Of a DNA stretch of 44,310 nucleotides, positions 2,289 through 40,126 are shown piece by piece. Position 1 is the stretch's first letter. Each line of letters opens with the position of its first letter. The notes under the pieces are model-generated. The model ran no database searches, was not told the DNA's origin, and saw only the letters and a list, made by a program, of their open reading frames with translations. This stretch comes from an uncultured Bacilli bacterium (lineage in GTDB: Bacteria > Bacillota_I > Bacilli_A > RF39 > UBA660): assembly GCA_944371685.1 (NCBI GenBank), contig CALVXV010000001.1:1-44310 (forward strand), read 5' to 3'. A program made the translations under genes and the position numbers.

Positions 2289-2310
2289 ATAGAAGTAGGA
2301 GGAGATAAGT

Positions 2311-2736: not shown

Positions 2737-2737
2737 T

Positions 2738-3631: not shown

Positions 3632-3651
3632 TTAAATTGTTTGCTTTTTTT
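3622..3651 (+). terminator. Rho-independent terminator
   Basis: AAGCAAA (3622-3628) pairs with TTTGCTT (3640-3646) and is followed by a T-run. Confidence 0.7.
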
Positions 3652-3778
3652 GACATTTTTTTGAGTAGCTTTTTTTTAAAATATATTTAGGTGATAAAAA
3701 TGACTTATAAATATCATATCTATGATGAAATAATAACTATTTATTAGTATATTTACAGAAAATTATCCATAAAATTAT

Positions 3779-4024
3779 ATGGGTGATATCATGTTTAAAG
3801 ATTTACGTGATTATATTTTAGAAAATGAATTTAAAATAACTATTTTTACAAATAAAATTGATATTTTAAATTATTTAGAAATTGATCATTTTGATGATGT
3901 TAAAATTATTGTAAGATTTACAAAAGGATTAGTAATTATTAAAGGTGATAATCTAACAATTTCAAAATTGCTTAATGATGAACTTTTAATTTTAGGAAAT
4001 ATTAAAAGTATTGAGTTTCAATGA
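3779..4024 (+). CDS. yqfC: Sporulation protein YqfC
   Basis: About 80 aa. The pattern ...KITIFTNKIDILNYLEIDHFDDVKIIV....LVIKGDNLTISKL..DELLILGNIKSIEF is YqfC-like. It overlaps the next gene by 4 nt (ATGA) and shows Bacillus-like synteny with yqfD. The start may be ATG 3791. Confidence 0.7.
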   Translation: MGDIMFKDLRDYILENEFKITIFTNKIDILNYLEIDHFDDVKIIVRFTKGLVIIKGDNLTISKLLNDELLILGNIKSIEFQ

Positions 4025-5169
4025 TTGATAAATTAATTAGTAAAGTTTCCTTAAATATAAAAGGAAAAAATATTAATAGGTTCATCAAAAAATTAAGGCA
4101 TCAAAAAATCGAGATTTTATCCATTAAATATAAAGATGCAAATCAAGCTGATATCATCATTTATAAAAAAGATTATGAAACTGTTTTAAAAATAAAAAGT
4201 ATTTATGAGATAGCAGAGTTAGATGTTTTTGGATTAATTAAAATTAAAAGAAAACTAAAATTGTCCAAGCATCTAATAATTATAACTGTAATTATGTTTA
4301 TTTTATTTTTGATTTTAACTCATGTAATTTTTGATGTTGAAGTTATACATTCAAACAAAGAACTTAGAACTCTTTTGCTTAATGAGTTAAAAAAAGATGG
4401 TATTAAAACCTTTTCGTTAAAAAAATCATATGATGAGATAAATAAAATTAAAGAAAAGATTATGAATAAATTTCCAGACCAAATAGAATGGTTAGAAATT
4501 GAAGAAAATGGGACTAAATATACAGTTAGAGTGGAAGAAAGAACTATTATTACTAAGGATGATAATAATACACCAAGAAATATAGTAGCTAAAAAAGATG
4601 GTGTTTTAAAAAAAGTTATTGCTAAAAAAGGTGATATCGTTAAGGATATGAATGATTATGTTAAAAAAGGTGACTTAATTGTAAATGGTGAACTTATCTT
4701 TAATGATGAAGTAAAAGGAAAAGTCAAAGCTGAAGGTGAAGCTTTTGCGGAAGTTTGGTATGTCACTAAAACGGAGTATCCAATGTTTACTTTTAAAGAA
4801 GAAAAAACTGATAACATTAAAAATGTTTATGCAATTAAATTTTTAAATCATACTTTTGAATTAACTTTTAATAAATTTAAAACTAAAAAAATAGAAGAAC
4901 AAGAAATTTTAAAACATAATTTAATTCCATTAAAAATAGTTAAACAAAAACAAACTGAAACCAAAGTGACTGATGAGATTTTAACTGTTGAAGAAGCTAT
5001 TTCTAAAGCTAAACAAAAAGCTGAAACAGATATTAAGAAAAAACTTTCGAAAGGAGAATACATCATTCGTAGTAAATATTTGAAAAGTACCGTCAAAGAG
5101 AGTATAGTAGAAGTAGAAATGTTTTTCGCCGTTTATGAAAACATTACTGACTATGCAGAAATAGGGTGA
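4021..5169 (+). CDS. yqfD: Sporulation protein YqfD (stage IV-like)
   Basis: 382 aa with a single TM helix near residue 90. The N-terminal '...IKGKNINRFIKKL...IEILSIKY' is YqfD-like. It is translationally coupled to yqfC and lies upstream of the ybeY-dgkA-era block as in Bacillus. Confidence 0.7.
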   Translation: MIDKLISKVSLNIKGKNINRFIKKLRHQKIEILSIKYKDANQADIIIYKKDYETVLKIKSIYEIAELDVFGLIKIKRKLKLSKHLIIITVIMFILFLILTHVIFDVEVIHSNKELRTLLLNELKKDGIKTFSLKKSYDEINKIKEKIMNKFPDQIEWLEIEENGTKYTVRVEERTIITKDDNNTPRNIVAKKDGVLKKVIAKKGDIVKDMNDYVKKGDLIVNGELIFNDEVKGKVKAEGEAFAEVWYVTKTEYPMFTFKEEKTDNIKNVYAIKFLNHTFELTFNKFKTKKIEEQEILKHNLIPLKIVKQKQTETKVTDEILTVEEAISKAKQKAETDIKKKLSKGEYIIRSKYLKSTVKESIVEVEMFFAVYENITDYAEIG

Positions 5170-5174
5170 TGTAG

Positions 5175-5786
5175 ATGATTAGAAGAAGTTTGCTTGAAAT
5201 ATTAGGTCAGGTATGGCCAACCATCCTAATTAGTAGTGTTATTGCTGTAAGTATGCGTTTAGTTTATTTAATTAAAAACAAACAAAAAATAGTTTTCTAT
5301 AAAGAACTACTTTCGTTAATTTTTATAATTTATGTTCTATGTTTATTCTACGTTGTCACGTTCCAAGATGTTGGATGGTCTAGTTCTAACTTTATTCCTT
5401 TTAAAGAAATGTTTAGATATAGTTTGGGAAGTAATTTATTTATAAAAAATGTTTTGGGCAATATTATCATGTTTGTTCCATATGGATTTTTTGTGTCATA
5501 TTATTTAGATTTAAAAAAGCCTTGGTCTGTCTTTTTCTTAATTTTACTTGTATCTGCTTCAATTGAAACTACACAACTGTTAATCGGCCGAGTATTTGAT
5601 ATTGATGATATTATCTTAAATCTTATTGGAGGAATGTTGGGATTTGGAATATATAAACTTATAAATATTATAAATAACCATCTTCCTGCAGTATTGAAAA
5701 ATCCTATAGTTTATAATATAATTATAGTGTTATGTAGTATTTTAATGGCTATGTATATGTTTAATTTAATAGAATTAGGAGTATAA
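5175..5786 (+). CDS. VanZ-family membrane protein
   Basis: 203 aa, polytopic. It carries the motifs NFIPF, N(I)IMFVPYGFF and SASIETTQLLIGRVFDIDDIILNLIGGMLG, characteristic of VanZ-like proteins. Confidence 0.75.
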   Translation: MIRRSLLEILGQVWPTILISSVIAVSMRLVYLIKNKQKIVFYKELLSLIFIIYVLCLFYVVTFQDVGWSSSNFIPFKEMFRYSLGSNLFIKNVLGNIIMFVPYGFFVSYYLDLKKPWSVFFLILLVSASIETTQLLIGRVFDIDDIILNLIGGMLGFGIYKLINIINNHLPAVLKNPIVYNIIIVLCSILMAMYMFNLIELGV

Positions 5787-5788
5787 TC

Positions 5789-6235
5789 ATGAATAATTAT
5801 GAAGTATTTAATGAAACCGATGAAAATATTGATATCGATGAAGAAAAAAAAATAATTGATTTTGCTTTAAAACATGAAAATTTAAACAATGTAACATTTA
5901 ACGTAATTTTTGTCGATAGTGATAAGATAACAAAGTTAAATAGAGATTATCGAGGTATTGATAGGGAAACCGATGTTATTAGTTTTGCCTTAGAGGATGG
6001 GGAGGCTAATATTAATTTTGAATTTGGTAGACTTTTAGGGGATATTTATATATGTGTTCCAAAAATGAAGGCTCAAGCGCAGGAATATGGACATAGTTTA
6101 GATAGAGAAATGGGATTTTTAACTATTCATGGACTACTTCATTTATTAGGTTATGATCATATGACAAAAGATGAAGAAAAAATTATGTTTGCAAAACAGG
6201 AGGAAATTTTAAATGCCTACGGTCTCAAGAGATGA
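5789..6235 (+). CDS. ybeY: rRNA maturation endoribonuclease YbeY
   Basis: 148 aa with the zinc motif HGLLHLLGYDH and TDVISF; conserved position upstream of dgkA-era. Confidence 0.9.
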   Translation: MNNYEVFNETDENIDIDEEKKIIDFALKHENLNNVTFNVIFVDSDKITKLNRDYRGIDRETDVISFALEDGEANINFEFGRLLGDIYICVPKMKAQAQEYGHSLDREMGFLTIHGLLHLLGYDHMTKDEEKIMFAKQEEILNAYGLKR

Positions 6236-6614
6236 ATTAAAAAAAAGAGGAATACATAGATTATTTAAGAGTTTTTCTTACGCTATTGATGGTTTAAAAT
6301 ATGCTTTTAAATATGAACAAAATATTTTAGTGCATACATTAGCTATGATTTTAGTTATTATTGCTGGTTTTATATTTAAAATATCTTTATTTGAGTGGTT
6401 AGTACTTTTTTTAATAATAGGTTTAGTCATTGCTACCGAACTCATAAATACCAGTATTGAAGCGACTATTGATTTAGTGACAAAAGAAATTCATCCATTA
6501 GCTAAAATAGCTAAGGATACTGCGGCTGCGGCTGTTTTAGTTTTTGGTTTAACGGCTATTGCGATTGGATGTATTATTTTTATACCTAAAATTTTAGTAT
6601 TAATAGGAGGATAA
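6213..6614 (+). CDS. dgkA: Diacylglycerol/undecaprenol kinase family protein (DgkA)
   Basis: 133 aa with three TM helices. Motifs are ELINTSIEATIDLVT.EIHPLAKIAKDTAAAAVL. It overlaps ybeY by 23 nt. Confidence 0.85.
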   Translation: MPTVSRDELKKRGIHRLFKSFSYAIDGLKYAFKYEQNILVHTLAMILVIIAGFIFKISLFEWLVLFLIIGLVIATELINTSIEATIDLVTKEIHPLAKIAKDTAAAAVLVFGLTAIAIGCIIFIPKILVLIGG

Positions 6615-6616
6615 AT

Positions 6617-7504
6617 ATGCGTAGTGGATTTGTAAGTTTTGTAGGAAGGCCAAACGTTGGTAAATCAACTCTTTTAAATCAAATAATTGGTAGCAAAATT
6701 GCTATTACGTCAGATAAACCACAGACAACTAGAAATATTATTCAAGGTATTTATAATGATAATGATACGCAAATTGTTTTTGTGGATACTCCGGGTATTC
6801 ATAAACCTACTCATAAACTTGGTCAAATATTAAATAGGGGAGCATATTACAGTATTGATGATGTCGATGTTGTATGTTTACTTGTAGATGCTCATGCTGG
6901 TTTAGGTAAAGGTGATAAGTATATTATCGAAAGGCTTAATGATATAAATAAACCGGTTATTTTAATAATTAACAAAATAGATGGTTTATCTAAAGACGAA
7001 ATATTTTTAAAAATAAACGAATATAAAGATTTATATAATTTTGCTGAAATTGTGCCGATTTCTGCTTTGAAAAATAAAAATATTGACGAATTAATTAAAG
7101 TAATTAAGGATTATTTACCTGATAATATAAAATATTTTGATGAAAGTATTAAAACTAACAGAAGTATGCAATTTATGATTGCTGAGACAGTTAGAGAAAA
7201 AATTTTGTGGCTTACTAAAGAAGAAGTTCCGCATTCTGTAACATGTGTTTTGGAAAAGGTTTTAAAAGATAAAGATAAAAGTATTATTAATGTAGCGATT
7301 ATTGTTGATAGAGATTCACTAAAAAAAATTATTATTGGTAAGCATGGTAGTATGATTAAGAAGATTGGTACTTTGGCAAGAAAAGATTTAGAGCAAGTTT
7401 TAGGTATGAAAGTATATTTAGAATTATATGTTAAAACGATTGAAAAATGGCGAGATAGAGAAAAGTATTTAAATGAATTTAATTTTAATGATTTTACTGA
7501 ATAA
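6617..7504 (+). CDS. era: GTPase Era
   Basis: 295 aa with G1 GRPNVGKST, G3 DTPG, G4 NKID and a C-terminal KH domain (IIIGKHGSMIKKIG). Confidence 0.95.
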   Translation: MRSGFVSFVGRPNVGKSTLLNQIIGSKIAITSDKPQTTRNIIQGIYNDNDTQIVFVDTPGIHKPTHKLGQILNRGAYYSIDDVDVVCLLVDAHAGLGKGDKYIIERLNDINKPVILIINKIDGLSKDEIFLKINEYKDLYNFAEIVPISALKNKNIDELIKVIKDYLPDNIKYFDESIKTNRSMQFMIAETVREKILWLTKEEVPHSVTCVLEKVLKDKDKSIINVAIIVDRDSLKKIIIGKHGSMIKKIGTLARKDLEQVLGMKVYLELYVKTIEKWRDREKYLNEFNFNDFTE

Positions 7505-7544
7505 AATATACTATAAATCATCAAGATAATAATGGGTGATACGA

Positions 7545-7667
7545 ATGAATAAAAAGGATTTATGGAACTTGTTTAGATTAACAGGGAAAATAGAATATTA
7601 TTTAAAGTATAAAGAAATAGAGGATAAGGATGAATTTAGAGGAAGTAACGGGAATAATTGTAAATGA
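7545..7667 (+). CDS. yqzL: YqzL-like small protein (not in ORF track)
   Basis: 40-aa ORF MNKKDLWNLFRLTGKIEYYLKYKEIEDKDEF... with a GGGTGA RBS. The W..F..TG.I..YL.YKE motif and the position between era and recO match Bacillus yqzL. Its 3' end overlaps recO by 38 nt in another frame. Confidence 0.5.
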   Translation: MNKKDLWNLFRLTGKIEYYLKYKEIEDKDEFRGSNGNNCK

Positions 7668-8370
7668 GACAGCGTATGGTGAGACGAGTAAAATTTTAAA
7701 TATCATTACTAAAGAAAAAGGTTTAATTTCTGTTATGGCTAAAGGATGTAAAAATATAAAAAGTCCTTTAAGAAGTGTTTCATCTAAATTAACCTATGGA
7801 ACATTTATTATTTATTATAAAGAAAATAAAATATCTACATTAAAAGAAGCAAGTGTTTTAGATAATTTTAAGAATTTAAAAAAAGACATAACCTCAATTA
7901 GTTATGCGGCTTATATGCTAGAACTTAGTGAAGGTGTAATTAAGCAAAATAATAACCCACATATATTTGATTTACTTATTCAAAGCTTAGAGAAAATAAA
8001 TGAAGGCTTTGATCCGTTAATTATTATGAATATTTTAGAGTTAAAATATTTAGAATATTTAGGGGTTATGCCTATTATTGATTCATGTGCCATATGTGGT
8101 AAAAAAACAGGAATTGTTACTTTATCTAGTTATCGTGGTGGTTATGTTTGTAAAGATTGCTATACAAATGAAAATATAGTGTCGGATAAAACAATAAAAT
8201 TAATTAGAATGTTTTACTATGTAGATATTAAAAAAATATCTAAATTGGATATTAGTTTAAAATCTAAAAATGAGATTAATAGGTTTTTAGATGATTATTA
8301 TTCAAGATATACTGGTTTATATTTGAAAAGTAAAAATTTTATTAAAAATTTACAGAAATTAGTAAACTAA
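7630..8370 (+). CDS. recO: DNA repair protein RecO
   Basis: 246 aa with an N-terminal OB-fold pattern (GIIVNETAYGETSKILNIITKEKGLISVMAKG) and a zinc motif CAICGKK...YVCKDC. Synteny after era. Confidence 0.9.
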   Translation: MNLEEVTGIIVNETAYGETSKILNIITKEKGLISVMAKGCKNIKSPLRSVSSKLTYGTFIIYYKENKISTLKEASVLDNFKNLKKDITSISYAAYMLELSEGVIKQNNNPHIFDLLIQSLEKINEGFDPLIIMNILELKYLEYLGVMPIIDSCAICGKKTGIVTLSSYRGGYVCKDCYTNENIVSDKTIKLIRMFYYVDIKKISKLDISLKSKNEINRFLDDYYSRYTGLYLKSKNFIKNLQKLVN

Positions 8371-8373
8371 CTC

Positions 8374-8402
8374 TTGACTAAATTTAAATAAAAACATAAA
8401 AT
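8374..8402 (+). promoter_or_regulatory. Candidate sigma-A promoter of the glyQS leader
   Basis: TTGACT (8374-8379), 17-nt spacer, TAAAAT (8397-8402). Confidence 0.55.
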
Positions 8403-8534
8403 TAATATGGATATTGAAAGGCGATGATCTGTGTGGAAAGCAGGGAGTCATATATTATAAAGTGATTCTTCTAGGATAAATAAGGTGGAACCGCGGTCAT
8501 ACCGTCCTTATATATTACTAGGAGTTTTTGTTTT
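8403..8534 (+). promoter_or_regulatory. T-box riboswitch leader (glycine class presumed) with terminator
   Basis: Conserved T-box sequence AAATAAGGTGGAACCGCGG (about 8478-8496). GCGATGA K-turn-like element at 8421-8427 and GTGGAAAGC distal-loop-like element. A long imperfect helix runs from CTTCTAGGATAAATAAGGTGG (8468-) to CCGTCCTTATATATTACTAGGAG (-8524) and is followed by TTTTTGTTTT. The specifier was not placed confidently. Confidence 0.65.
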
Positions 8535-8545
8535 AGGAGGTAATT

Positions 8546-9916
8546 ATGGAAAAATTAACTATGGAAAAATTAGTCAGTATTTGTAAGCAATATGGTTTTA
8601 TCTTTCAAGGAAGTGAAATATATGGAGGCCTTGCTAATACTTGGGATTATGGACCACTTGGTGTAGAACTAAAAAATAATTTAAAGAAGGCTTGGTGGAA
8701 GAAATTTATTCAGGAAAGTAAGCATAGTTATGGTGTTGATGCGGCTATTTTAATGAATCCCAAAGTATGGGAAGCATCAGGTCATGTTCAAAATTTTTCA
8801 GATCCATTAATTGATTGTAGAGAATGTAAAGCAAGATGGCGAGCTGATAAATTGGCCGAAGAATATGATCATGAAATTGATGGCGATTCTATGAGTGATG
8901 ATGAACTATATGATTATATTGTAAAAAATAACATCAAATGTCCGAAGTGTGGTAAATCAAATTGGACTAAGATTAGACAATTTAATTTACTTTTTGAAAC
9001 AAGTAGAGGCGTTATTAAAGACGATTCATCTAAAGTTTATTTAAGAGGGGAAACTGCTCAAGGAGAGTTTGTTAATTTTTTAAATGTTCAAAAATCTATG
9101 AGAGCTAAATTACCATTTGGTATTGGTCAAATTGGTAAAGCTTTTAGAAATGAAATTACTCCAGGTAACTTTACGTTTAGAACGATAGAGTTTGAACAGA
9201 TGGAACATCAGTTATTTTGTAATGGTGAAGATTCAATGAATTTTTATGAAACTTATAAACAAAAAGCTTGGAATTTTTTGATAAATTTAGGTATCAAAGA
9301 AGATGATATTAGGTTTAAAGACCATGAAAAATTAGTTTTCTATTGTAAAGCCGCTTGTGATATACAGTATAGATTTCCTTTTGGCTTTGATGAATTGTGG
9401 GGTACTCATCACAGAGGTACTTATGATTTATCTCGTCACGAAGAATATTCAGGTACGCCAATGCGTTATTTAGATCCCGATACTAATGAAAAAGTTTTAC
9501 CAACTATAGTTGAATCAAGTGTTGGAGCGGATAGATTAACTTTAGCTATTTTATGTAATGCTTATGAAAATCAAACTTTAGAAGATGGTACTACTAGAGA
9601 AGTGATGCATTTTCATCCTTTTTTAGCCCCTTATAAAGCTGCTGTTTTACCACTTGTTAAAAAGCATCATAAAGAAAAAGCTTTAGAAATATATGAAATG
9701 CTTTCTAAAGACTTTATGATTACATATGATGAAACAGGTAATATTGGAAAAAGATATCGCAGGGAGGATATTGCTGGAACGCCATTTTGTATAACGGTTG
9801 ATGATGAGACTCTTAATAATAAAACTGTAACAGTTAGAGATAGAGATACTATGAAGCAAGAGATAATTAAAATAGAAGATTTAAAAGATTATTTGAATAA
9901 GAAAATCCAATTTTAA
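8546..9916 (+). CDS. glyQS: Glycine--tRNA ligase, single-chain (alpha2) type
   Basis: 456 aa. N-terminal ...CKQYGFIFQGSEIYGGLANTWDYGPLGVELKNN and class II motifs (FRNEITPG..FRT.EFEQME; GADR) are present, and the gene is preceded by a T-box leader. Confidence 0.9.
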   Translation: MEKLTMEKLVSICKQYGFIFQGSEIYGGLANTWDYGPLGVELKNNLKKAWWKKFIQESKHSYGVDAAILMNPKVWEASGHVQNFSDPLIDCRECKARWRADKLAEEYDHEIDGDSMSDDELYDYIVKNNIKCPKCGKSNWTKIRQFNLLFETSRGVIKDDSSKVYLRGETAQGEFVNFLNVQKSMRAKLPFGIGQIGKAFRNEITPGNFTFRTIEFEQMEHQLFCNGEDSMNFYETYKQKAWNFLINLGIKEDDIRFKDHEKLVFYCKAACDIQYRFPFGFDELWGTHHRGTYDLSRHEEYSGTPMRYLDPDTNEKVLPTIVESSVGADRLTLAILCNAYENQTLEDGTTREVMHFHPFLAPYKAAVLPLVKKHHKEKALEIYEMLSKDFMITYDETGNIGKRYRREDIAGTPFCITVDDETLNNKTVTVRDRDTMKQEIIKIEDLKDYLNKKIQF

Positions 9917-12786: not shown

Positions 12787-13266
12787 ATGGAAAAATTTAC
12801 AAGAGTCATGAGAGGATATGACCCGGATGAAGTTAATAACTTTTTAGATCAGGTTATTAAAAGGGTTGAAAAAATGATTGCTGATATTGATAAAAAAAAT
12901 AAATTAATAGAAAGCAAAAATGAAGAAATAAAAAAATTACAAGCTCAAATTGAAGATACTAGTGTTATTAAAGAAAAATTAGAGCAGTATGAAAGAATGG
13001 AAAATACTTTAAATAGAGCTATAATGATGGCTCAAAAAACGTCCGACCAATTAAAAATAAGTGCCCACCGAGAAAGCGAAATAATTATTGATGATGCCAA
13101 AAAGAATGCCAGCCGTATCGTTAATGATGCTTTAATTAAAGCTGAAAAAATTGAAAATGATGCGGAAGCTACTAAACGTAATATTAACGTTTTAAAGCGT
13201 AGATTGAAAAGTATTATTGAATCTCAATTAGAAATAATTGATGATATTGATAAGTTGGATATATAA
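12787..13266 (+). CDS. divIVA: DivIVA-domain cell division/septum-site protein
   Basis: 159 aa with N-terminal F..VMRGYDPDEVNNFLDQV followed by coiled coil. Confidence 0.85.
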   Translation: MEKFTRVMRGYDPDEVNNFLDQVIKRVEKMIADIDKKNKLIESKNEEIKKLQAQIEDTSVIKEKLEQYERMENTLNRAIMMAQKTSDQLKISAHRESEIIIDDAKKNASRIVNDALIKAEKIENDAEATKRNINVLKRRLKSIIESQLEIIDDIDKLDI

Positions 13267-13267
13267 A

Positions 13268-13481
13268 AACAGATGATAGAGATGTTATATTAATAATAGC
13301 TTTAAAGAGAGTTAGTGGTTGGTGAAAGCTAATAGCTAATTAATATATGGATCACTCTTGATGTTTCTTTTTGAACGTAAGTAAATAAGAACGGTAACGC
13401 GTTATAGTTTCTTGAGTGTATTTTAAAATAAAATAAGGTGGTACCGCGGGAAAACTCGTCCTTAAATAAGGACGTTTTTTT
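13268..13481 (+). promoter_or_regulatory. T-box riboswitch leader, isoleucine specifier (AUC)
   Basis: K-turn GATGA (13272-) is followed by AGAG. AGAGAG box and GGTGAAAGC distal loop are present. The specifier-loop 3' side reads ATC-A and is immediately followed by CTCT (pairs with AGAG) and TGATG. T-box sequence AAATAAGGTGGTACCGCGG. Terminator is CGTCCTT(13457-63)/AAGGACG(13468-74) plus T7. Confidence 0.75.
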
Positions 13482-13531: not shown

Positions 13532-14263
13532 ATGTTTAAATATAGAAATATTAATATAAATTATATTAGATATGGTAATCCAAATGGACAAACTGTAGTT
13601 TTATTACATGGATGGGGCCAAAATATTGAGATGATGAAACCGATAGGGGATAGACTTGTCGATAATGATGTTATTATATTAGACCTTCCTGGTCATGGTA
13701 AAAGTGATGAGCCAAAAGAAGTATGGGATTTAAAGGATTTTGTAGATATGATTCACGAATTACTTAATACTTTAAATATAAAAAATCCAATATTAATTGG
13801 TCATTCATTTGGCGGTAAAATAAGTTTACTTTATGCCAGTAAATATCCAGTTAAAAAATTGATCTTATTTGGTAGTCCATTTAAAGTTAAGAAAAATCCG
13901 CAAAGTTTAAAAGTTAGGACTTTAAAAAAATTAAAAACGTTACCGGGTTTAAATAAAGTCGCAGAAGTTATGAAAAAGCATATGGGCTCTACTGATTATA
14001 GAAATGCAAGTCCGATGATGAGAGACATTTTAGTTAGACATGTAAATACTGATATTACTGAAAATGTTAAAAAGATTAACTGTCCAACTATAATTATATG
14101 GGGAACTAATGATGCAGCGGTTCCAATAGAAGATGCTTATGAACTTGAAACTTTAATTAAAGATTCGGCAGTTATTCCATATGAAGGATGTACTCATTAT
14201 GCATATTTAGAAAGGTTAAATCAAACGGTTTCAATTATTCAAAATTTTATAAAGGAGAAGTAA
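13532..14263 (+). CDS. Alpha/beta-fold hydrolase
   Basis: 243 aa with an oxyanion HGWG, the nucleophile elbow GHSFGG and a C-terminal ..GC.H.. (His of the triad). Substrate unknown. Confidence 0.8.
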   Translation: MFKYRNININYIRYGNPNGQTVVLLHGWGQNIEMMKPIGDRLVDNDVIILDLPGHGKSDEPKEVWDLKDFVDMIHELLNTLNIKNPILIGHSFGGKISLLYASKYPVKKLILFGSPFKVKKNPQSLKVRTLKKLKTLPGLNKVAEVMKKHMGSTDYRNASPMMRDILVRHVNTDITENVKKINCPTIIIWGTNDAAVPIEDAYELETLIKDSAVIPYEGCTHYAYLERLNQTVSIIQNFIKEK

Positions 14264-29750: not shown

Positions 29751-30410
29751 ATGGAAAATTCTTATTATAATGTGATTGAAACATTATTGTTAATTTTATC
29801 AGCCGATGAAGGAAAACTAAAAATATATCTTGAAAAGAAAAAAGAAGAACCTTACAAAGGCTATTGGATTCTTCCTGGAAGTATTTTAAATAATCAAACA
29901 ATTTTAGAAGATAATGCTAAAAATATTTATCAAAAAACTACGGGCTTAGATGAAGGTTGTATCTTTCAAACTAAGGCTTTTAGTGATTTAAAACGTGATT
30001 TAAATGAAAGAGTTATTGCGGTGTCATTTGTAGCTATAACTGATAAAACTTTAACAGATATTAAACAAAGTACTAATGAAAAAGCTTGGTTTCAAATTGA
30101 TGAATTACCAAAATTAGGGTTTGATCATGAACAGATTATTAATGAGGTTATCAGTGAGTTAAGGAAAAAAATAACCACTAACTATGATGATATGTTGATT
30201 AAATTTTTCCCTAGTGATTTTACACTTCCTGAACTTCAAAATTTCTACGAATTTGTTTTATCTAAACCGATTGACCGAAGAAATTTCCATAAAAAGTTTG
30301 TCAATCAAGATTTAGTCATTGATACTGGTTTTAAAACAGCAAAAGGTAGTGGTAGACCAGGTACCTTATATAGATTTAATATTGATAAAATGAAAGGTAA
30401 AAGACTATGA
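29751..30410 (+). CDS. NrtR-like protein: Nudix-fold domain with degenerate Nudix box fused to C-terminal winged helix
   Basis: 219 aa. GYWILPGSIL......LEDNAKNIYQKTTGL occupies the Nudix box position, but the REx2EE glutamates are replaced (KNIYQK). The C-terminal ...LQNFYE.VL.K..DRRNF.KK........DTG......GSGRPGTLYRF is typical of NrtR-type wHTH. Confidence 0.6.
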   Translation: MENSYYNVIETLLLILSADEGKLKIYLEKKKEEPYKGYWILPGSILNNQTILEDNAKNIYQKTTGLDEGCIFQTKAFSDLKRDLNERVIAVSFVAITDKTLTDIKQSTNEKAWFQIDELPKLGFDHEQIINEVISELRKKITTNYDDMLIKFFPSDFTLPELQNFYEFVLSKPIDRRNFHKKFVNQDLVIDTGFKTAKGSGRPGTLYRFNIDKMKGKRL

Positions 30411-33721: not shown

Positions 33722-34607
33722 ATGAAAAAAATTAAAGAAGTTTCAAAAAGATATTTAATAGGATTTGTAATAGGCATAGTAGTTTGGGGTGGAATGAGTG
33801 CAATAGCTATGACTTATTTCCCATCAAACCAAACAACTTGTGATAATAGTGTAAGTGGACTTAAAAGTAAGGATGTGCAGGGAGCCATAGATGAGCTTTA
33901 TAAAACTTGCACAGCAAAGACAGTAAATATTGGCGGTATTGAAGTACCTTTAGAAGATGATGGAGATGGTTTATGTGAAGATGAGAAGGTGTAAGAACAA
34001 CTGGATATTGTTCACAAGGTAGTGCTCCATTATATGGGTGCGACGCATGGAGTTCAACGACAAATATGGTAGGAAATCCCATTGAATTTTCAAATGGTAT
34101 ATGTGCTGCTATTGTTGAAGATGATAGTGAAATATTAAAATATTTAAATTCAAAATTTTTGAATAGTATAAGTGAAAATAAAGATAAAATAATAAATCAT
34201 ATTTGGAATATTGGCGGGGTTGTACAATTGGAAGATAGTATCAAGTACAATTAGAAGATGAGAAGGAATATCAGTGGAGTGGGAAGGTTGGACTTATAAG
34301 TATTAGTGATTATCTTAAAGCAAATGGTCAACAAGATGCTTGTGGAACTTATTTGAAATATAGTAGTATTGTTGAAGGATTGTGTTCAAATTTTGTTTGG
34401 ATGTATTTACAAAACAGCAATTGGTGGACAATATCTCATATTAAAAATAGTGAGGTACTTCCTCAGGGTGTATATTTTATTTCAAAAGTTATAGGAGTTA
34501 ATAATGCAAATGTAATTCATGATGTCCGTCCTGCCTTATATTTATCCTCTGAGATCCAAATTACTGGAGGAGATGGCAGCCAAAATAATCCATATACGAT
34601 TGAATAA
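33722..34607 (+). pseudogene. Frameshifted paralogue of 20036..20950 (secreted VQGAIDELY-motif protein)
   Basis: Homology to the intact copy is spread over three frames. Frame A (33722-33994) has the signal plus YFPSNQTTCDN.VSGLKSKDVQGAIDELYKTC..GDGL. Frame B runs to 34254. Frame C (about 34244-34607) has GLISISDYLKANG, NWWTIS, VRPALYLSS and GGDGSQNNPYTIE. Confidence 0.75.
34222..34259 (+). repeat. Tandem near-duplicate (period 23 nt) at the second frameshift of the pseudogene
   Basis: GTACAATTGGAAGAT (34222-34236) and GTACAATTAGAAGAT (34245-34259) match at 14/15 positions and are offset by 23 nt (not a multiple of 3). They sit exactly where the reading frame switches. Confidence 0.7.
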
Positions 34608-34750: not shown

Positions 34751-34779
34751 TTTAAAAAACTAAGATAGTAATGTATAAT
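34751..34779 (+). promoter_or_regulatory. Candidate promoter of the CYTH-rSAM-LysR operon
   Basis: TTTAAA (34751-34756), 17-nt spacer, TATAAT (34774-34779). GGAGG RBS at 34791-34795 precedes ATG 34801. Confidence 0.4.
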
Positions 34780-34800
34780 ATAGTAGAAATGGAGGCTTTT

Positions 34801-35376
34801 ATGGGAAAAGAAAAAGAAGTAACGATTTTGGATATTAATGAAGAAGAATTTGTTAATAAGTTATTAAAAAATGGTGCTGTCAAACAAGATGAATTTTTAC
34901 AAAGAAGATATACTTATGATTTTAATCCAGTTAAAAAAAACAAGTGGATTAGATTAAGAACTAATGGGAAAAAGACAACTTTAACAATTAAAGAGATAAA
35001 GGATAAATCAGCCATAGATGGAACAATGGAACTGGAGACAGTTGTTGATGATTTTGATGTAATGAATGATATTTTAAATGAATTAGGCTATCATTATCGT
35101 AATTATCAAGAAAATTACCGAAAAATTTATTTGATGGATAATGTAGAAATTTCTATTGATTCATGGCCATTAATACCAACTTATGCGGAAGTGGAAGGTA
35201 AGAGTAATGAAGATGTTATAAAGGCTTTAAATAAATTAGGATACACTTTAAATGATGTAACTACTTTAGATGTAACCTCTATTTATAATGAAATATATAA
35301 TATTGATTTACTAAAAATAAAAGAATTAAAGTTTGAAGGGAGTAATCATGAAAGTATGCTGGAGTATAACAAGTAA
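34801..35376 (+). CDS. CYTH-domain (triphosphate tunnel metalloenzyme / CyaB-like) protein
   Basis: 191 aa from ATG 34801; the track start 34771 falls in the -10 box. Fold landmarks by eye: N-terminal EKEVT (ExExK position), WIRLRT, TLTIKE, MELETVVDD, LNELGY.......Y.K.Y, VEISIDSWP.IPTYAEVEG. Confidence 0.6.
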   Translation: MGKEKEVTILDINEEEFVNKLLKNGAVKQDEFLQRRYTYDFNPVKKNKWIRLRTNGKKTTLTIKEIKDKSAIDGTMELETVVDDFDVMNDILNELGYHYRNYQENYRKIYLMDNVEISIDSWPLIPTYAEVEGKSNEDVIKALNKLGYTLNDVTTLDVTSIYNEIYNIDLLKIKELKFEGSNHESMLEYNK

Positions 35377-36085
35377 ATGTAATAGAAATTGCAGATATTG
35401 TTTTAGATTTAATAGACAAGATTTATCTTTAAAAGAAAATGAAAAAGTTTTAGACAGTTTATTCAAAATGGGGGTAAAGAAAATTTCATGGACTGGTGGT
35501 GAACCATTTTTATACGATGATTTGCCAATTTTACTAAAAAAAAGTAAAGAATATGGAATTATTAATTCTGTGAATACTAATTTAACGACAGTTGATTTAG
35601 ATAATTTAAAAGATAAAATTAAAAATGTTGATAGATTAATTATATCTTTAGATTTTATCTCAGATGCTTTGAATGAAAAATATGGAATAGGAAAAGATTA
35701 TTATAAACATGTTTCTAAGATATTAAAACGAGTGAAACAAATCAAACCTGATATAATTTTGCAATTAAATACAGTTTTATTTAGTGGGAATATTAATTAT
35801 ATGGATGGCTTATATAAGGAAATTTGTAAATATGATATAGATTATTGGAAAATAATTCGTTTTTTACCGATTAGAGGTAAAGCTTATGAAGAAAAAAATA
35901 ATTTATCAATTGAGGATGATCAATTTGAAAAAATTTTGACAAGGTTTAAACAAAAAAAACAACATTTTAAAATTATTATTCACGGATTAAAAGAAATGGA
36001 AAAAAAACATATTATAGTTTTAAGCTCTGGGAAACTAATTTATAGTGAAAATGGGAAGGATAAAGAGATTAAATCTTTAATTTAA
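35348..36085 (+). CDS. Radical SAM enzyme, viperin (RSAD2)-like, short form
   Basis: 245 aa from ATG 35348 (RBS GGGAG; the track TTG is at 35333). CNRNCRYC lies at 35378-35401. It aligns with viperin blocks by eye: KISWTGGEPFLYDD, DRLIISLDF....N...G.GK...KHV, LQLNTVL, DYWKIIRFLPIRGKA, IEDDQFEKILTRFK. No extra Cys cluster is present. Confidence 0.6.
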   Translation: MKVCWSITSKCNRNCRYCFRFNRQDLSLKENEKVLDSLFKMGVKKISWTGGEPFLYDDLPILLKKSKEYGIINSVNTNLTTVDLDNLKDKIKNVDRLIISLDFISDALNEKYGIGKDYYKHVSKILKRVKQIKPDIILQLNTVLFSGNINYMDGLYKEICKYDIDYWKIIRFLPIRGKAYEEKNNLSIEDDQFEKILTRFKQKKQHFKIIIHGLKEMEKKHIIVLSSGKLIYSENGKDKEIKSLI

Positions 36086-36101
36086 GGAAGGAAATTTTAT
36101 A

Positions 36102-36995
36102 ATGGATAAAAATATCAATTTGAATTTGTACCGAATTTTTTATGAAACAGCTCAATATCATAGTATTTCTGATGCGGCCAAAAGTATGTATTTATCACAG
36201 CCCGCTATCAGTAAAGCAATTAAAAATTTAGAAAATGAACTGAATGTTATGCTGTTTTATAGAACACTTAATGGAATTATTTTAACTGATAAAGGTAAAG
36301 AATTATATGAGTTAGTGGAAGATGCTTTAGGTAATTTTAGACAAGCAGAAAAACGGATGCTTGAAAATAAAAATTTAGAGAAGGGTTCTTTGTCAATTGG
36401 TGTAAGATCAAATGTGGCATCATTTTATTTATTGGATAAGATTGCGTCTTTTCATAAAAAATATAACAAAATTGATATAGTGATTATTGATAGACCAAGT
36501 AGTGAGCTATTAAGAATGCTTTCAAATAATGAAATTGATTTTGTATTAGATTCTGTATCAGTAAAAGATGAATTAGATGGATTTGACGTTAAACCATTAG
36601 ATACTTTTACGCATACATTTATAGTTCTTCCTGAGTTAAACGTTTTACCTTATAAAGAAAAATATCATTTAAAAGAATTAGAAAATCTTCCACTTATATT
36701 ACCGGTTTCACATAGTTCACATAGACAGTATTTAAATAATTTAGCACAAGACAATAATACTAGTTTTAACAATGTCCTTTCTATAGAAACAAGTGAACTG
36801 ATTTATAGTATGGTAAAAAAAGGTTTGGGTATAGGCTATATTTTAAGAGATATGGTAAAAAGTGATATTGAAAGTGGCAAATTAAGAGAGATAAAAATAT
36901 ATGAAGAATTACCAGATATATCTTTAAATTTAATATGTAAACAGAGAAATTTAACTGAAGCCCCTAGACGTTTTATAGATGAATATTTAAAATAA
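36102..36995 (+). CDS. LysR-family transcriptional regulator
   Basis: 297 aa with N-terminal HTH (F.ETAQYHSISDAAKSMYLSQPAISKAIKNLENEL....F.R) and a C-terminal substrate-binding-like domain. It starts 16 nt after the rSAM stop, with RBS AGGAAGGA. Confidence 0.85.
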   Translation: MDKNINLNLYRIFYETAQYHSISDAAKSMYLSQPAISKAIKNLENELNVMLFYRTLNGIILTDKGKELYELVEDALGNFRQAEKRMLENKNLEKGSLSIGVRSNVASFYLLDKIASFHKKYNKIDIVIIDRPSSELLRMLSNNEIDFVLDSVSVKDELDGFDVKPLDTFTHTFIVLPELNVLPYKEKYHLKELENLPLILPVSHSSHRQYLNNLAQDNNTSFNNVLSIETSELIYSMVKKGLGIGYILRDMVKSDIESGKLREIKIYEELPDISLNLICKQRNLTEAPRRFIDEYLK

Positions 36996-37158
36996 CATGA
37001 AAAAATGTTATTTTTTTATTATTTTTTTGAATAGTAATTACCGAAAAATATATTGATAAAAAAATTTTTTATACGAATAATTAAAGGTTATAATTTTATA
37101 AATTATTGGTATTTTTAAACTATTTTATTTTATGATACATTTAAGTTGAGGAGGAAAT

Positions 37159-38637
37159 ATGTATAAGGTAATTGCGATTAGTGGAAGTTCAGGTAGTGGA
37201 AAAACTACAGTTAGTGAAGAAATTTTAAAAAGGGCGAAAAAGTTAGTTTATTTTGATTTTGGTTTTCTATTTAGACCAATTACATATTATTTAGTGAATG
37301 AATTAAATATGGATGAGGATAGTATTAAAAATATGGTTTTAAGTGGGCAACTGCAAAGATTTATTAAGGTTACATATAAAGTTATTAATAATAAAGTGGA
37401 AGTTGGTGTTAATGGTAAATTTTATAGTTTTGATGTTTTAAATACACCAAAGATGAATATGGATACAATTACAGTTGGAACAATTATTGGTGATACACTC
37501 AATGACGCTTTAAGAAGTATAGTGGATGATTTAAAAAAGGAAAATAATGTATTACTTAATGCGAGAAGGCCGATAGTTGCTTATCCTAAAGCAGATTGTC
37601 ATATTTTTTTAGAAGCTAGTTTTGACGAGAGAATTAAAAGAAAAATGCTTATGAATAATGAAGATTATGAAACTACTTTAAAAAAGTTAAAAAAACGTGA
37701 TGAAAAAGAAGAAACTAGTGGTTTTTGGGAAAAATATGATTTTACAAAAATTATTGATACAACAAATTTAACTAAGGAGGAAGCGGTAGATAAGGTATTA
37801 CAGGTAATAAAAAATGAATTTGTCAGTTTTAATAATTTAACATTAATTTTAGGATCATATAAATGTAATAAGAATTGTCCATATTGTATAGCTAAAAATA
37901 ATAAAAAGTTTTCTGCAGACGATAATTTAGATTACTTAGATGAAGTTTTCAATGAATTATTAAAATATAAAATTAAATTTAAGAGATTTGTTGTTAGTGG
38001 TAATGGTGAACCGTCATTTTATTCTTTAGAAAATTTAAAAATTATAAGAGATTTACTGATAAAATATCAAGAATTGTTTGAAATAGTTAGGGTTCATTCT
38101 TCTGGGAATATTTTTAGTGAGGAAAAGAAGTTTAAACTTTTTAATTTATCAAATTTACCACTGGAATTTGAGGTTCTAAGAGTTGCTTTAAATCCATATA
38201 TAGATATGAATATTTTAGGATATGATGAAGATTATTTAAAAACAAATTCGTTTCATGAGGGAAATATAAAATGTGATATTGCTTTAACTGATTATTTAGA
38301 AGCTGATGAATTAAAGTTTAAACTTTATAATTTTTTGGAAGATAATCCGTCTATAAAAAAAGTTAGGTTAAAAAGTTTATTAGCGGGTGATAGCACTAAT
38401 ACTAAGCAGGCACAATGGGTAAGAAAACATTCTCTTAGTGCGGATAAAATTCAAATGATTATAGAAGAACTTGGTTTAAATTTAAATGATGGGATTTATA
38501 GTTCTGATGATGGTAAAATTATTTATAAAACAAATGGTGATTATACTTTTGATTATGTAATTAATGACGGAATATTTCAAAATTATAATAATGAAAAATG
38601 TAGTATGAAAGTGTTAAGAAGAAAGTTAGGTGGCTAA
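37159..38637 (+). CDS. Fusion protein: cytidylate (CMP) kinase-like P-loop domain + radical SAM domain
   Basis: 492 aa. The N-terminal half has IAISGSSGSGKTT (37183-37209), FDFGFLFR, ...KADCHIFLEASFDERIKRK, KKRDEKEE and IIDTTNLTKEE, matching Cmk landmarks. The C-terminal half has CNKNCPYC (37864-37887), VVSGNGEPS and VRLKSLLAGDS, which is radical SAM, possibly also viperin-related. Confidence 0.65.
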   Translation: MYKVIAISGSSGSGKTTVSEEILKRAKKLVYFDFGFLFRPITYYLVNELNMDEDSIKNMVLSGQLQRFIKVTYKVINNKVEVGVNGKFYSFDVLNTPKMNMDTITVGTIIGDTLNDALRSIVDDLKKENNVLLNARRPIVAYPKADCHIFLEASFDERIKRKMLMNNEDYETTLKKLKKRDEKEETSGFWEKYDFTKIIDTTNLTKEEAVDKVLQVIKNEFVSFNNLTLILGSYKCNKNCPYCIAKNNKKFSADDNLDYLDEVFNELLKYKIKFKRFVVSGNGEPSFYSLENLKIIRDLLIKYQELFEIVRVHSSGNIFSEEKKFKLFNLSNLPLEFEVLRVALNPYIDMNILGYDEDYLKTNSFHEGNIKCDIALTDYLEADELKFKLYNFLEDNPSIKKVRLKSLLAGDSTNTKQAQWVRKHSLSADKIQMIIEELGLNLNDGIYSSDDGKIIYKTNGDYTFDYVINDGIFQNYNNEKCSMKVLRRKLGG

Positions 38638-38638
38638 A

Positions 38639-39349
38639 GTGCGAAAGATATTAAATTTTGTTGGTACTGGTGGTGCTTTTTCGACAAAGTATATAAATAA
38701 TTGTGCATATTATTATTTAAAAGATGATACGATTTTATTGTTTGATGCGGGTGAAACGGTTTTTCACGAGATTTTGAAAAGAAATATTATAAATGAAAAT
38801 ATTAAAAGAGTTGATATTGTAATTACACATTTTCATAGTGATCATGTAGGCAGTTTAGGAAGCTTAGTTTTTTATTTAAGATATAAGAAAATAAGTGAAG
38901 TAAATATTATATTTCCCATTAAAGTTATACCATATATGCTTTTAAATATTTATGGTATTGATGAAAGGTTATTTAATGTAAAAAAACCATGTGAAATACA
39001 TGATTATTATATTAAGGAATATGAACAATTGCATGGTGATTTAGATAAAGATGGAAATATTATTTCAATGCCTAGTTATGGATATCATGTGATTAATAAT
39101 AATGATAATTTCTTTTATAGTGGTGATACATGTATTATTAGTGATATAATATTAAAAAAGTTTAAAAATAAGGAAATTAAAATAATGTATCACGAAGTAA
39201 CTACTGATGGGTATAAAACACATATGCAATTAGATGATTTAACTAGATTGATTGATGTTAAAGATAGGAATAGAGTGATATGCATGCATATGGGAGATAA
39301 TGTAGATGTGTCAAAGATTAAAAGTTTAGGATTTGGGAGTGTGAGGTAA
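38639..39349 (+). CDS. Metallo-beta-lactamase-fold hydrolase (RNase Z/PhnP-like subgroup suspected)
   Basis: The start is GTG 38639 (AGGTGG RBS at 38628-33) or GTG 38630; it overlaps or abuts the fusion-gene stop. Motifs are FVGTGGAF, LLFDAGE and ITHFHSDH (38828-38845), with later SGDT and H residues. Confidence 0.75.
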   Translation: MRKILNFVGTGGAFSTKYINNCAYYYLKDDTILLFDAGETVFHEILKRNIINENIKRVDIVITHFHSDHVGSLGSLVFYLRYKKISEVNIIFPIKVIPYMLLNIYGIDERLFNVKKPCEIHDYYIKEYEQLHGDLDKDGNIISMPSYGYHVINNNDNFFYSGDTCIISDIILKKFKNKEIKIMYHEVTTDGYKTHMQLDDLTRLIDVKDRNRVICMHMGDNVDVSKIKSLGFGSVR

Positions 39350-39351
39350 AT

Positions 39352-39933
39352 ATGAAAGAGGAATTAGAAATTTGTGTTAGGTCTTTAGTGCCATTTAAAC
39401 AACTTTATGACGATATGATTAATAAAGGGTTTCATGTTCAAGAGGATTTTATTTTAAATGATATTTATATGGTTCATAATGACATAGAAGTATCTTTGGA
39501 AAATGAAGATGTGATTTTTTCTAATTATGTTTTGATTAGAGAGACTGTAGGTAAAAAGAAAATGCTTGTTTTAAAACATAAAGAAATGAATAAAAAAGGT
39601 GAGATAATAAAACAAGAGTCAGTTAAATGTCCAATTGATGATTGCACAAAAGCTTATGAATTTATGAAAGCTATTGGTTATAAAAAAATTTTTGATATTA
39701 GTGATCATAATATTTTGATGAGTAATGGGAAAAATGAAATTTATCTTCAAGATGTAAAAGGGATTGGAACTTATGTTGAGATGGAGCAAAAAAATTTACT
39801 TTTGAAGAATAATAATGGTGATACAATAGATAAAATGAAAAATAATTTACAAGGATATGCATTACAAATTGATACCAAAGATTATTTTGCAAGAAAAGCA
39901 TATGATGCGTTTAAAAAGATATTTAATGAGTAA
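39352..39933 (+). CDS. Second CYTH-like domain protein
   Basis: 193 aa, starting 2 nt after the MBL gene. Landmarks by eye: N-terminal ELEIC (ExExK position), VLIRET, LVLKHKE, QESVKCPIDD, MKAIGYKKIFDISDHN, EIYLQDVKGIGTYVEMEQ. Confidence 0.5.
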   Translation: MKEELEICVRSLVPFKQLYDDMINKGFHVQEDFILNDIYMVHNDIEVSLENEDVIFSNYVLIRETVGKKKMLVLKHKEMNKKGEIIKQESVKCPIDDCTKAYEFMKAIGYKKIFDISDHNILMSNGKNEIYLQDVKGIGTYVEMEQKNLLLKNNNGDTIDKMKNNLQGYALQIDTKDYFARKAYDAFKKIFNE

Positions 39934-39973: not shown

Positions 39974-40126
39974 TTAGTGATTACCACAAGCTCTAGCTCC
40001 GATAATTATTACAAGTAAAATAAATAGCACTAAAATGATTGCTGCGCCATAGCCTGTTCCGTATCCGCCACCATAGCCACCGTATGAAGGGCAGCCATAG
40101 CCTTGATACCCACCATAGTAATACAT
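39974..40126 (-). CDS. YjcZ-family small Gly/Tyr-rich sporulation protein (not in ORF track)
   Basis: 50 aa: MYYYGGYQGYGCPSYGGYGGGYGTGYGAAIILVLFILLVIIIGARACGNH*. GGAGG RBS lies 7 nt upstream. A Gly/Tyr-rich head plus the hydrophobic tail (A)IILVLFILLVII(IG) is the YjcZ/tiny-TM signature. Confidence 0.7.
   Translation of the reverse strand: MYYYGGYQGYGCPSYGGYGGGYGTGYGAAIILVLFILLVIIIGARACGNH

Follow-up and report, generated by a model that had tools for sequence, protein, structure and literature searches.

A cytidylate kinase-like domain fused to a previously undescribed radical SAM family in a six-gene cassette of an uncultured Bacilli bacterium

The window analysed here is a 44,310-nucleotide (nt) stretch of DNA from an uncultured Bacilli bacterium of the GTDB lineage Bacillota_I; Bacilli_A; RF39; UBA660 (GenBank assembly GCA_944371685.1, contig CALVXV010000001.1, positions 1 to 44,310, forward strand). 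At 37159-38637 it contains an uninterrupted open reading frame (ORF) of 492 codons, as the initial annotation, made without database searches, had reported; the opposite strand is crowded with stops. An AGGAGG ribosome-binding site (37149-37154) is followed 4 nt later by the ATG of the gene. The encoded protein joins a nucleoside monophosphate (NMP) kinase domain of the cytidylate kinase (Cmk) type to a radical S-adenosylmethionine (SAM) domain, termed rSAM2 below, and its gene belongs to a six-gene cassette spanning 34771-39933 on the + strand. The sequence motifs first quoted for the protein are all present, and its features are as follows.

37159..38637, + strand: kinase::rSAM2 fusion ORF, one open frame of 492 codons plus stop
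37159..37815, + strand (residues 1-219): kinase domain, a P-loop NMP kinase of the Cmk fold
Residues 5-17: IAISGSSGSGKTT
37183-37209, + strand: kinase P-loop
37252-37275, + strand (residues 32-39): FDFGFLFR, the FDFG..R motif of the kinase
37558-37572, + strand: NARRP motif of the kinase, read as NARRPI over residues 134-139
Residues 149-161: IFLEASFDERIKR
Residues 179-185: KRDEKEE
Residues 198-208: IIDTTNLTKEE
37816..38637, + strand (residues 220-492 plus stop): rSAM2 domain, a single-cluster radical SAM barrel with a C-terminal beta-rich subdomain
37864-37887, + strand (residues 236-243): CNKNCPYC, the CxxxCxxC motif of rSAM2
37996-38016, + strand (residues 280-286): SGNGEPS motif of rSAM2
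Residues 402-412: VRLKSLLAGDS

A search of 5.8 billion proteins for homologues of the fusion returned 46 clusters with the same architecture (484-559 amino acids [aa], 40-100% identity, at least 97% query coverage), and both Pfam domains were found in nearly all of them. One homologue lies on a 1.52-Mb hifiasm (HiFi) chromosome of an uncultured gut Bacilli bacterium (OZ007022.1) and another on a metagenome-assembled genome of Candidatus Coprosoma. The window sequence itself recurs unchanged in an independent Logan assembly (P0001). In an alignment of 29 members the junction between kinase and radical SAM domain is conserved, with no break in frame. Because the architecture is found in 46 clusters and on a HiFi chromosome, the frameshift or assembly artefact that the initial annotation had allowed for can be set aside, and its claim of a genuine fusion holds. 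Kinase and rSAM2 are encoded by adjacent separate genes in three other loci (L009, L031 and L034), and CYTH::kinase fusions also exist (P0053, P0055 and P0056). This pattern of fusion and fission, of the Rosetta-stone kind, indicates a functional link rather than an artefact, and the naturally split versions show that the covalent linkage is dispensable, which bears on the proposal of the initial annotation that the fusion would pass newly phosphorylated nucleotide straight to the radical SAM active site. In an AlphaFold2 (AF2) model of the whole protein (mean predicted local distance difference test [pLDDT] 86, predicted template modelling score [pTM] 0.59, compared with 0.90 for the rSAM2 domain alone) the geometry between the domains is not fixed.

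That the N-terminal half is a kinase of the Cmk type was borne out by several comparisons. Its best Pfam family is Cytidylate_kin (PF02224), which matches residues 5-218 with 62 bits (cutoff 26; E 8.7e-17) over profile positions 1-210 of 211, and its top PDB sequence matches are cytidylate kinases. The AF2 model aligns in Foldseek with the cytidine monophosphate (CMP) kinases 2cmk, 1kdo and 4die at target-normalised TM scores of 0.78-0.84 and includes the beta-hairpin insert of the NMP-binding domain (strands 71-76 and 79-84). The NCBIfam equivalog model TIGR00017 is not reached (60 bits against a cutoff of 135.55). The thymidylate kinase family PF02223 gave no match in the fusion protein, and the PHROG thymidylate kinase matches are limited to the P-loop.

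In bacterial Cmk the phosphates are bound by Arg41 and Arg131, the cytosine is hydrogen-bonded by Ser36, Arg110 and Asp132, Tyr40 stacks on the base, and Asp185 and Arg188 contact cytidine diphosphate (PMC3603445). With residue equivalences taken from HMMER alignments, the fusion kinase shares with Cmk (PF02224, TIGR00017; 2cmk, 1kdo, 4die and 1q3t) the fold, the NMP insert, the P-loop, the LID arginines, the equivalents of Arg41 and Arg131, the aromatic residue that stacks on the base and the RD..(D/E) region at the ribose. The P-loop, R39 (Arg41), F38 (Tyr40), R136 (Arg131), the LID residues R158 and R161, R180 and E184 are all invariant or nearly so, and G9, G14, K15, R39, R136, R158 and R161 are invariant in 29 sequences. 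In contrast to Cmk, the residues that read cytosine have been lost: the equivalent of Ser36 is an invariant phenylalanine (F34), that of Arg110 is N115, which varies among N, T, S and I, and that of Asp132 is R137. There is a 3-residue gap where Cmk has Arg188, and the GRD(M/I)GT motif of Cmk reads NARRP; no canonical GRDxGT motif of cmk occurs within the window. The suggestion that the base specificity may differ is thus strengthened, both by the altered motif and by replacement of all three cytosine readers.

The fusion kinases have an invariant signature of their own, FDFG..R, GD..N, NARRP, RD.KE..FW and FT..IDTT, which is found in fused, split and CYTH-fused relatives of only 38-40% identity. 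FDFG, NARRP, FW and IDTT set them apart from Cmk, and whereas housekeeping Cmk stands alone, members of this group are always linked or fused to rSAM2 and/or CYTH. By this signature they are a distinct Cmk-derived clade. The pattern of conservation suggests that the kinase domain has probably remained a competent phosphotransferase while its acceptor base pocket was rebuilt.

The C-terminal half is a radical SAM domain, as had been proposed. C236, C240 and C243, together with Y242, and the G281-N-G-E284 motif are invariant in fused, stand-alone and phage members. Modelled alone with AF2 from 36 sequences, the domain forms a partial barrel (pLDDT 92.7, pTM 0.90), which Foldseek matched to the PDB structures of EpeE, NifB, HydG, lysine 2,3-aminomutase, HydE, SuiB, anSME and PFL-AE (TM 0.47-0.59, probability 1.0). 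Pfam Radical_SAM (PF04055) aligns with residues 234-361 at a borderline score, and homologues fall on either side of its cutoff. Since there is no second conserved set of cysteines, rSAM2 is a single-cluster enzyme. An auxiliary cluster, or a SPASM or twitch domain, was considered and rejected; there are no further conserved cysteines, and C372 is not kept in distant members. A role as a glycyl-radical activase, raised by weak similarity to NrdG2 and PFL-AE, was also rejected, as no glycyl-radical enzyme is conserved nearby; the sole example is in locus L007, 7 kb away on the opposite strand.

The initial annotation had presented this half as an analogue of viperin, and here the evidence is contrary. 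The prokaryotic viperin model NF038283 (viperin_w_prok) gives 17.9-18.8 bits on rSAM2 members (17.9 for the window) against a cutoff of 180, over 63 residues of the cluster-motif region only. TIGR04278 was not listed among the rSAM2 matches, and the PADLOC model for viperin-kinase fusions, PDLC02905, did not match the fusion at E≤0.1. None of the viperin structures 5vsl, 6q2p, 6b4c, 7n7h, 7n7i and 9dfu is among the top 50 Foldseek matches of rSAM2 in the PDB, its structural matches in BFVD are generic phage radical SAM proteins only, and a family profile found nothing significant in the PDB. When rSAM2 was aligned by hhalign with the viperin-like protein encoded two genes upstream, similarity extended across the barrel (91% probability, E 9e-7). 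The resemblance of VRLKSLL to a viperin region, noted at first sight, stands as to position, in that it lies on the strand equivalent to RWKVFQ of viperin, and falls as to sequence, in that the residues are not shared. An equation of the invariant R403-x-K405 with the triphosphate-binding R-x-K of viperin was dropped, as hhalign places the non-conserved K400 opposite the lysine of the neighbour's WK. To judge by these alignments, homology between rSAM2 and viperin is at the superfamily level only.

None of 12 rSAM2 members came near the cutoff of any NCBIfam model. The nearest curated model is that of the TatD-associated radical SAM family, TIGR04038, which was the best sub-threshold match in 8 of these 12 (best E 1.4e-10). 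Both families are small and single-cluster; the window domain scores 22.7 bits against a cutoff of 129.7, over the N-terminal half only, and TIGR04038 is itself uncharacterised. An exhaustive hidden Markov model (HMM) search of 1.84 billion representatives found 406 at E≤1e-3 and only 55 at E≤1e-30, so that the family is rare. No source gave a name for any of the members checked, the literature searched describes neither the fusion nor rSAM2 nor the cassette, and no homologue was found in cultured phages and plasmids. We conclude that rSAM2 is a previously undescribed radical SAM family and is not viperin.

The genes and signals around the fusion gene are these; the initial annotation had missed the viperin-like gene among them and the cassette to which the fusion belongs.

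34771..35376, + strand: CYTH-1, a 201-aa triphosphate-tunnel protein whose gene opens the cassette (Pfam CYTH 29.3 bits, cutoff 23.2)
35348..36085, + strand: viperin-like radical SAM protein of 245 aa, counted from ATG (start at TTG 35333 in the ORF list), with CNRNCRYC and GGEP
36102..36995, + strand: LysR-type transcriptional regulator of 297 aa (Pfam HTH_1 and LysR_substrate)
37036..37154, + strand: conserved intergenic region 5' of the fusion gene (consensus scan and sequence)
37053-37081: promoter-like TTGATA-17-AATAAT (consensus scan)
38630..39349, + strand: Apyc1-like metallo-beta-lactamase-fold (MBL) phosphodiesterase of 239 aa, with HFHSDH (HxHxDH)
39352..39933, + strand: CYTH-2, a divergent CYTH protein of 193 aa, last gene of the cassette (weak Pfam CYTH match)

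The actual viperin-like gene of this locus is thus a separate ORF. Its product gives 118.8 bits with NF038283 (cutoff 180; profile positions 2-250 of 281), 51 bits with TIGR04278 (cutoff 450), E 2.7e-36 with PADLOC pVip and E 5.9e-19 with the fusion model PDLC02905, and its best PDB sequence matches are the viperins 9dfu, 6b4c, 7n7i and 5vsl (E ~1e-15). Compared with viperin, it aligns along the barrel, with the (R/Y)WK..(Q/R).L..(E/R)G strand included, but remains below both NCBIfam cutoffs, is only 245 aa long without the C-terminal extension, and has C.S in place of the N.H that precedes the cluster motif. Its family is tight and unnamed, with members of 245-250 aa throughout, and at least 13 contigs, paired by equal size, carry both this family and the fusion. 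The stretches encoding the cluster motifs of the two radical SAM enzymes of the window, KCNRNCRYC (35374-35401) and KCNKNCPYC (37860-37887), are 82% identical over 28 nt, which is consistent with a distant common ancestry of the two.

CYTH-1 scores 39 bits with NCBIfam cyaB, under the cutoff of that model, its best PDB match is the triphosphate tunnel metalloenzyme (TTM) 7ns8, and its ExEx[T/K], Arg, Lys and ExE residues are conserved across loci. CYTH-2 also falls under the cyaB cutoff (42 bits, E 7e-11) and has in common with CYTH-1 an invariant Arg, Lys, Gly and ExE. Both best fit class IV cyclase/TTM models, below cutoff, and both retain the tunnel residues. The MBL protein scores 44 bits with Pfam Lactamase_B_2 and 37.8 bits with Anti-Pycsar_Apyc1 (PF23023, cutoff 50); in the PDB it matches 7fct (E 1.9e-24), Apyc1 itself over its full length (7u2r, E 2.3e-17) and 7t28, and its N-terminus partially matches the RNase Z model TIGR02651 (E 3.7e-15). 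It resembles the anti-Pycsar phosphodiesterase Apyc1 (7u2r, 7t28) over the full length and in the HxHxDH motif; unlike phage-borne Apyc1 it is chromosomal, embedded in a cassette and exchangeable for a PHP phosphoesterase, which takes its place in L009 and L031-33.

The 3' end of CYTH-1 overlaps the viperin-like gene, and the start of the MBL gene overlaps the stop of the fusion by 8 nt; these overlaps suggest translational coupling. The 164-nt gap that precedes the fusion contains the promoter-like site and blocks of sequence kept between cassettes that are ~51% identical at the protein level, which suggests that an internal promoter is regulated there; the intergenic region also has a TTATA-N4-TATAA inverted repeat. 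A 19-nt direct repeat, AATTACCGAAAAAT(T/A)TATT, occurs at 35113-35131, inside the CYTH-1 gene, and at 37036-37054, just 5' of the promoter-like site in the conserved intergenic region; the copies are 95% identical and may represent an operator half-site or chance. Neither the window cassette nor nine type C loci (described below) yielded a riboswitch; only T-box leaders and tRNAs were seen.

The cassette is flanked in the window by def on one side and by genes for FtsW, ComEA and ComEC on the other, in L001 by TnpB and pilin-sortase genes, and in L004 by PPDK and NUDIX-ATP-grasp genes. As it is kept across three unrelated flanking contexts, it behaves as a unit. A search for repeats and terminal inverted repeats around it gave AT-rich chance matches only, and there is no compositional anomaly, the GC fraction being 0.24-0.27 in the cassette and 0.22-0.31 in the flanks.

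Several other features of the window were recorded. Just upstream of the cassette (33722-34607, + strand) are three short ORFs of 90, 62 and 84 aa with no Pfam matches and with internal direct repeats at 33926-33960 and 34207-34261; they look like remnants of a single decayed gene with repeats. A 50-aa Gly/Tyr-rich ORF (39974-40126, - strand), which separates the cassette from the FtsW/RodA-like gene, ends in a hydrophobic segment (MYYYGGYQGYGCPSYGGYGGGYGTGYG...). An NrtR-type winged-helix regulator without a Nudix Pfam match (29751-30410, + strand; PF21906, 71 bits) lies 4.3 kb upstream of the cassette. Regulators of the NrtR/NadQ type also accompany type C loci, but as the window copy is only ~30% identical over the winged helix and does not occur in the remaining type A contexts, its connection with the cassette is doubtful. 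A T-box leader (13264-13466, + strand; Rfam RF00230, 110 bits) is found 5' of the ORF at 13532-14263 and is unrelated to the fusion.

To place the fusion among its relatives, 104 rSAM2 loci from genomes, metagenomes and viral contigs were compared, with cassette proteins mapped by tblastn. The order found in the window, CYTH-1, viperin-like protein, LysR, kinase::rSAM2, Apyc1-like MBL and CYTH-2, defines type A, which includes L001-6, L014-16 and L026, with partial copies in L025, L027, L029 and L030; the LysR gene is found in every type A cassette. Types A' and B combine rSAM2 with a kinase, fused or adjacent; next come either CYTH-2 and a PHP phosphoesterase or NUDIX together with CYTH or an endonuclease. 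CYTH-2 comes after rSAM2 in both types A and A'. The viperin-like gene is restricted to type A: none was detected in the available sequence of types A' and B (L028, L031-34, L007/8), and types C and D are without it.

Type C (~25 loci) consists of a PnuC-type transporter followed by rSAM2 fused to a domain resembling nucleoside 2-deoxyribosyltransferase (weak matches), often with an NrtR/NadQ-type regulator and sometimes with a Ham1 nucleoside triphosphate (NTP) pyrophosphatase or, in four loci, a LysR homologue; examples are L012 (7400-9356), L041, L043, L088 and L095. These loci often also hold a P-loop protein of ~300 aa outside any identified family. A reading of one type C neighbor as a CYTH::thymidylate-kinase fusion was withdrawn, as Pfam, NCBIfam, PDB and hhalign comparisons show only a P-loop and an NrtR-type winged helix. 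In type D (~35 loci) a MazG/PRA-PH-like protein of 83-93 aa (phrog_6408), rSAM2 and a homologue of the SerRS catalytic core (221-223 aa; phrog_4806) follow one another, many of them on IMG/VR phage contigs of 50-107 kb. Examples, L018 (7748-9474) and L020 (7209-8966), lie among genes for GIY-YIG endonucleases and helicases, and the rSAM2 gene is split in L020 and L099 (109 + 134 aa). The MazG-like module is fused to rSAM2 in some bacteria (P0060-62). L035 has an rSAM2 and CYTH pair and no kinase; its neighbours at 2160-9477, read by eye from translations, resemble a serine recombinase, a relaxase and an ATPase, which suggests that the pair may be able to travel on a mobile element. The radical SAM protein of L023, 22% identical to rSAM2, was not counted as a member of the family. 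It lies on a 190-kb IMG/VR contig (5706-9541) amid genes whose translations, by eye, resemble nicotinate/nicotinamide phosphoribosyltransferase, nicotinamidase and nicotinamide mononucleotide adenylyltransferase; this would be a phage cluster for salvage of nicotinamide adenine dinucleotide with an embedded radical SAM gene.

In every arrangement among the 104 loci the immediate partners of rSAM2 are proteins that handle nucleosides or nucleotides: the Cmk-type kinase, CYTH, NUDIX, MBL or PHP proteins, PnuC with the deoxyribosyltransferase-like domain and, in phages, the MazG-like and SerRS-core-like proteins. The coupling of an NMP kinase to a nucleotide-directed radical SAM enzyme is already known, and is seen here with different parts. 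Among bacterial viperins, 12% have an NMP kinase within three genes, and in eukaryotes fusions of viperin with kinases and with a triphosphatase/cyclase domain occur (Shomar et al., bioRxiv 10.1101/2023.09.13.557418). The present fusion resembles CMPK2-viperin and the pVip-kinase fusions (PDLC02905) in joining an NMP kinase to a radical SAM enzyme, and the viperin-kinase and viperin-triphosphatase/cyclase fusions are echoed in the sharing of this cassette by viperin-like and CYTH genes. It differs from CMPK2-viperin in that the fused rSAM2 is not viperin and the viperin-like enzyme is a separate gene. CMPK2, moreover, is thymidylate-kinase-like, unlike the Cmk-type kinase of the fusion.

The reading we favor, with moderate confidence, is that the fusion is a bifunctional enzyme that tailors a non-canonical nucleotide. 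The kinase domain would use ATP to phosphorylate a non-cytosine or modified NMP, probably not plain CMP, to the diphosphate. rSAM2 would hold one [4Fe-4S] cluster on C236, C240 and C243, cleave SAM to a 5'-deoxyadenosyl radical, and modify the same nucleotide by hydrogen abstraction. The viperin-like enzyme would carry out a second radical step, the two CYTH enzymes would trim, hydrolyse or cyclise a triphosphate moiety, the Apyc1-like or PHP enzyme would hydrolyse a phosphodiester or cyclic phosphate, and LysR would tie expression to a small molecule, so that the cassette jointly makes and turns over a non-canonical nucleotide. The rebuilt base pocket fits a kinase acting on the product of rSAM2 equally well as one that feeds it.

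Several observations weigh against this reading. The Pfam Radical_SAM match is only at threshold (29.1 bits for the full protein and 29.7 for the isolated domain, cutoff 29.5), several homologues score under it, and no characterised homologue points to the chemistry. The catalytic residues of the kinase are conserved, yet the domain could serve in binding and not in catalysis. The deoxyribosyltransferase-like and MazG-like partners were called from weak HMM matches (E 1e-2 to 1e-4), and the MBL protein, with its RNase Z-like N-terminus, and the CYTH proteins would also suit an RNA substrate. In all three flanking contexts the neighbors are housekeeping genes, so that location signals neither a defence nor a metabolic role.

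The best surviving alternative, although an unlikely one, is that the cassette serves LysR-controlled salvage or catabolism of an exogenous modified nucleoside or nucleotide in a gut bacterium of reduced genome, with the radical step or steps stripping or rearranging the modification and the kinase returning the product to the pool. LysR regulators commonly control operons that respond to metabolites, each type A cassette contains one, and LysR homologues also flank four type C loci; the type C fusion of rSAM2 directly follows the PnuC-type nucleoside transporter, with the NrtR/NadQ-type regulator near it. Genomes of the host lineage are ~1.5 Mb, and the housekeeping flanks are also in keeping with such a role. 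On the other hand, the type A cassette has no transporter, two radical SAM and two CYTH proteins would be a heavy investment for salvage, the phage versions, which carry MazG-like and SerRS-core-like genes, appear biosynthetic, and no riboswitch was found near PnuC or the cassette.

Somewhat less plausible still is the original proposal of a fused CMPK2-viperin analogue, in which the kinase would lift the pyrimidine nucleotide pool and the radical SAM domain would form a 3'-deoxy-3',4'-didehydro NTP, an antiviral chain terminator. The known linkage and fusion of kinases with viperins (bioRxiv 10.1101/2023.09.13.557418), the existence of a PADLOC model for pVip-kinase fusions, the viperin-like and CYTH genes of the cassette, the hhalign match between the two radical SAM proteins and their common KCN(R/K)NC.YC stretch all lend it some support, and the rSAM2 relatives in phages suggest a setting of conflict. 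However, rSAM2 fails the NF038283, PDLC02905 and Foldseek top-50 comparisons with viperin, and the cassette has a viperin-like enzyme of its own, so that rSAM2 would be a second, different activity. Types A', B, C and D hold rSAM2 without the viperin-like gene. The kinase has lost its cytosine readers and, being of the Cmk type, would yield a nucleoside diphosphate rather than an NTP, and none of the three flanking contexts contains defence-island neighbors.

An RNA-directed role has a low probability. The cassette would then process, repair or modify tRNA or RNA 5' ends: CYTH would be the RNA triphosphatase, MBL a nuclease akin to RNase Z, the P-loop domain a polynucleotide kinase and rSAM2 the RNA modifier. 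Some members of the CYTH family are RNA triphosphatases and many radical SAM enzymes modify RNA, the partial RNase Z match of the MBL N-terminus fits, and phage rSAM2 is followed by a homologue of the SerRS catalytic core. Yet the kinase is specifically Cmk-like, with the mononucleotide insert and both NMP phosphate-binding arginines kept, the full-length match of the MBL protein is to the cyclic-mononucleotide phosphodiesterase Apyc1, and the PnuC, NUDIX, MazG-like, Ham1 and deoxyribosyltransferase-like partners act on small-molecule nucleotides. A merger of two neighboring genes by frameshift or misassembly, for which one might cite the lineages with separate adjacent genes (L031, L034 and L009), can be dismissed almost entirely, given 46 independent clusters from differing assemblers and samples with a single frame across the conserved junction, the HiFi chromosome among them, and the unchanged sequence in the Logan assembly.

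A bolder form of the nucleotide-tailoring reading is offered tentatively, as possible rather than probable. Alongside viperin, and independent of it, rSAM2 would form a second lineage of radical SAM enzymes that modify nucleotides, in use by bacteria and phages alike; the cassette would be a two-radical-enzyme pathway to a new nucleotide analogue or modified cyclic nucleotide; and the Cmk-derived kinase would be specific for a modified monophosphate.

Viperin with its kinase partner is the standard case in which radical SAM chemistry converts ordinary nucleotides to bioactive analogues. Automated defence-system finders would probably call the present cassette "viperin" by way of the neighboring gene and so overlook its second radical enzyme. 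rSAM2, for which no curated model, structure, database name or literature was found, is repeatedly associated with nucleotide modules, both in phage genomes and in metagenomes from gut, rumen and elsewhere, and this makes it a well-defined target in the search for new nucleotide chemistry, whether the product is an antimetabolite or a signal or the pathway one of salvage or modification.

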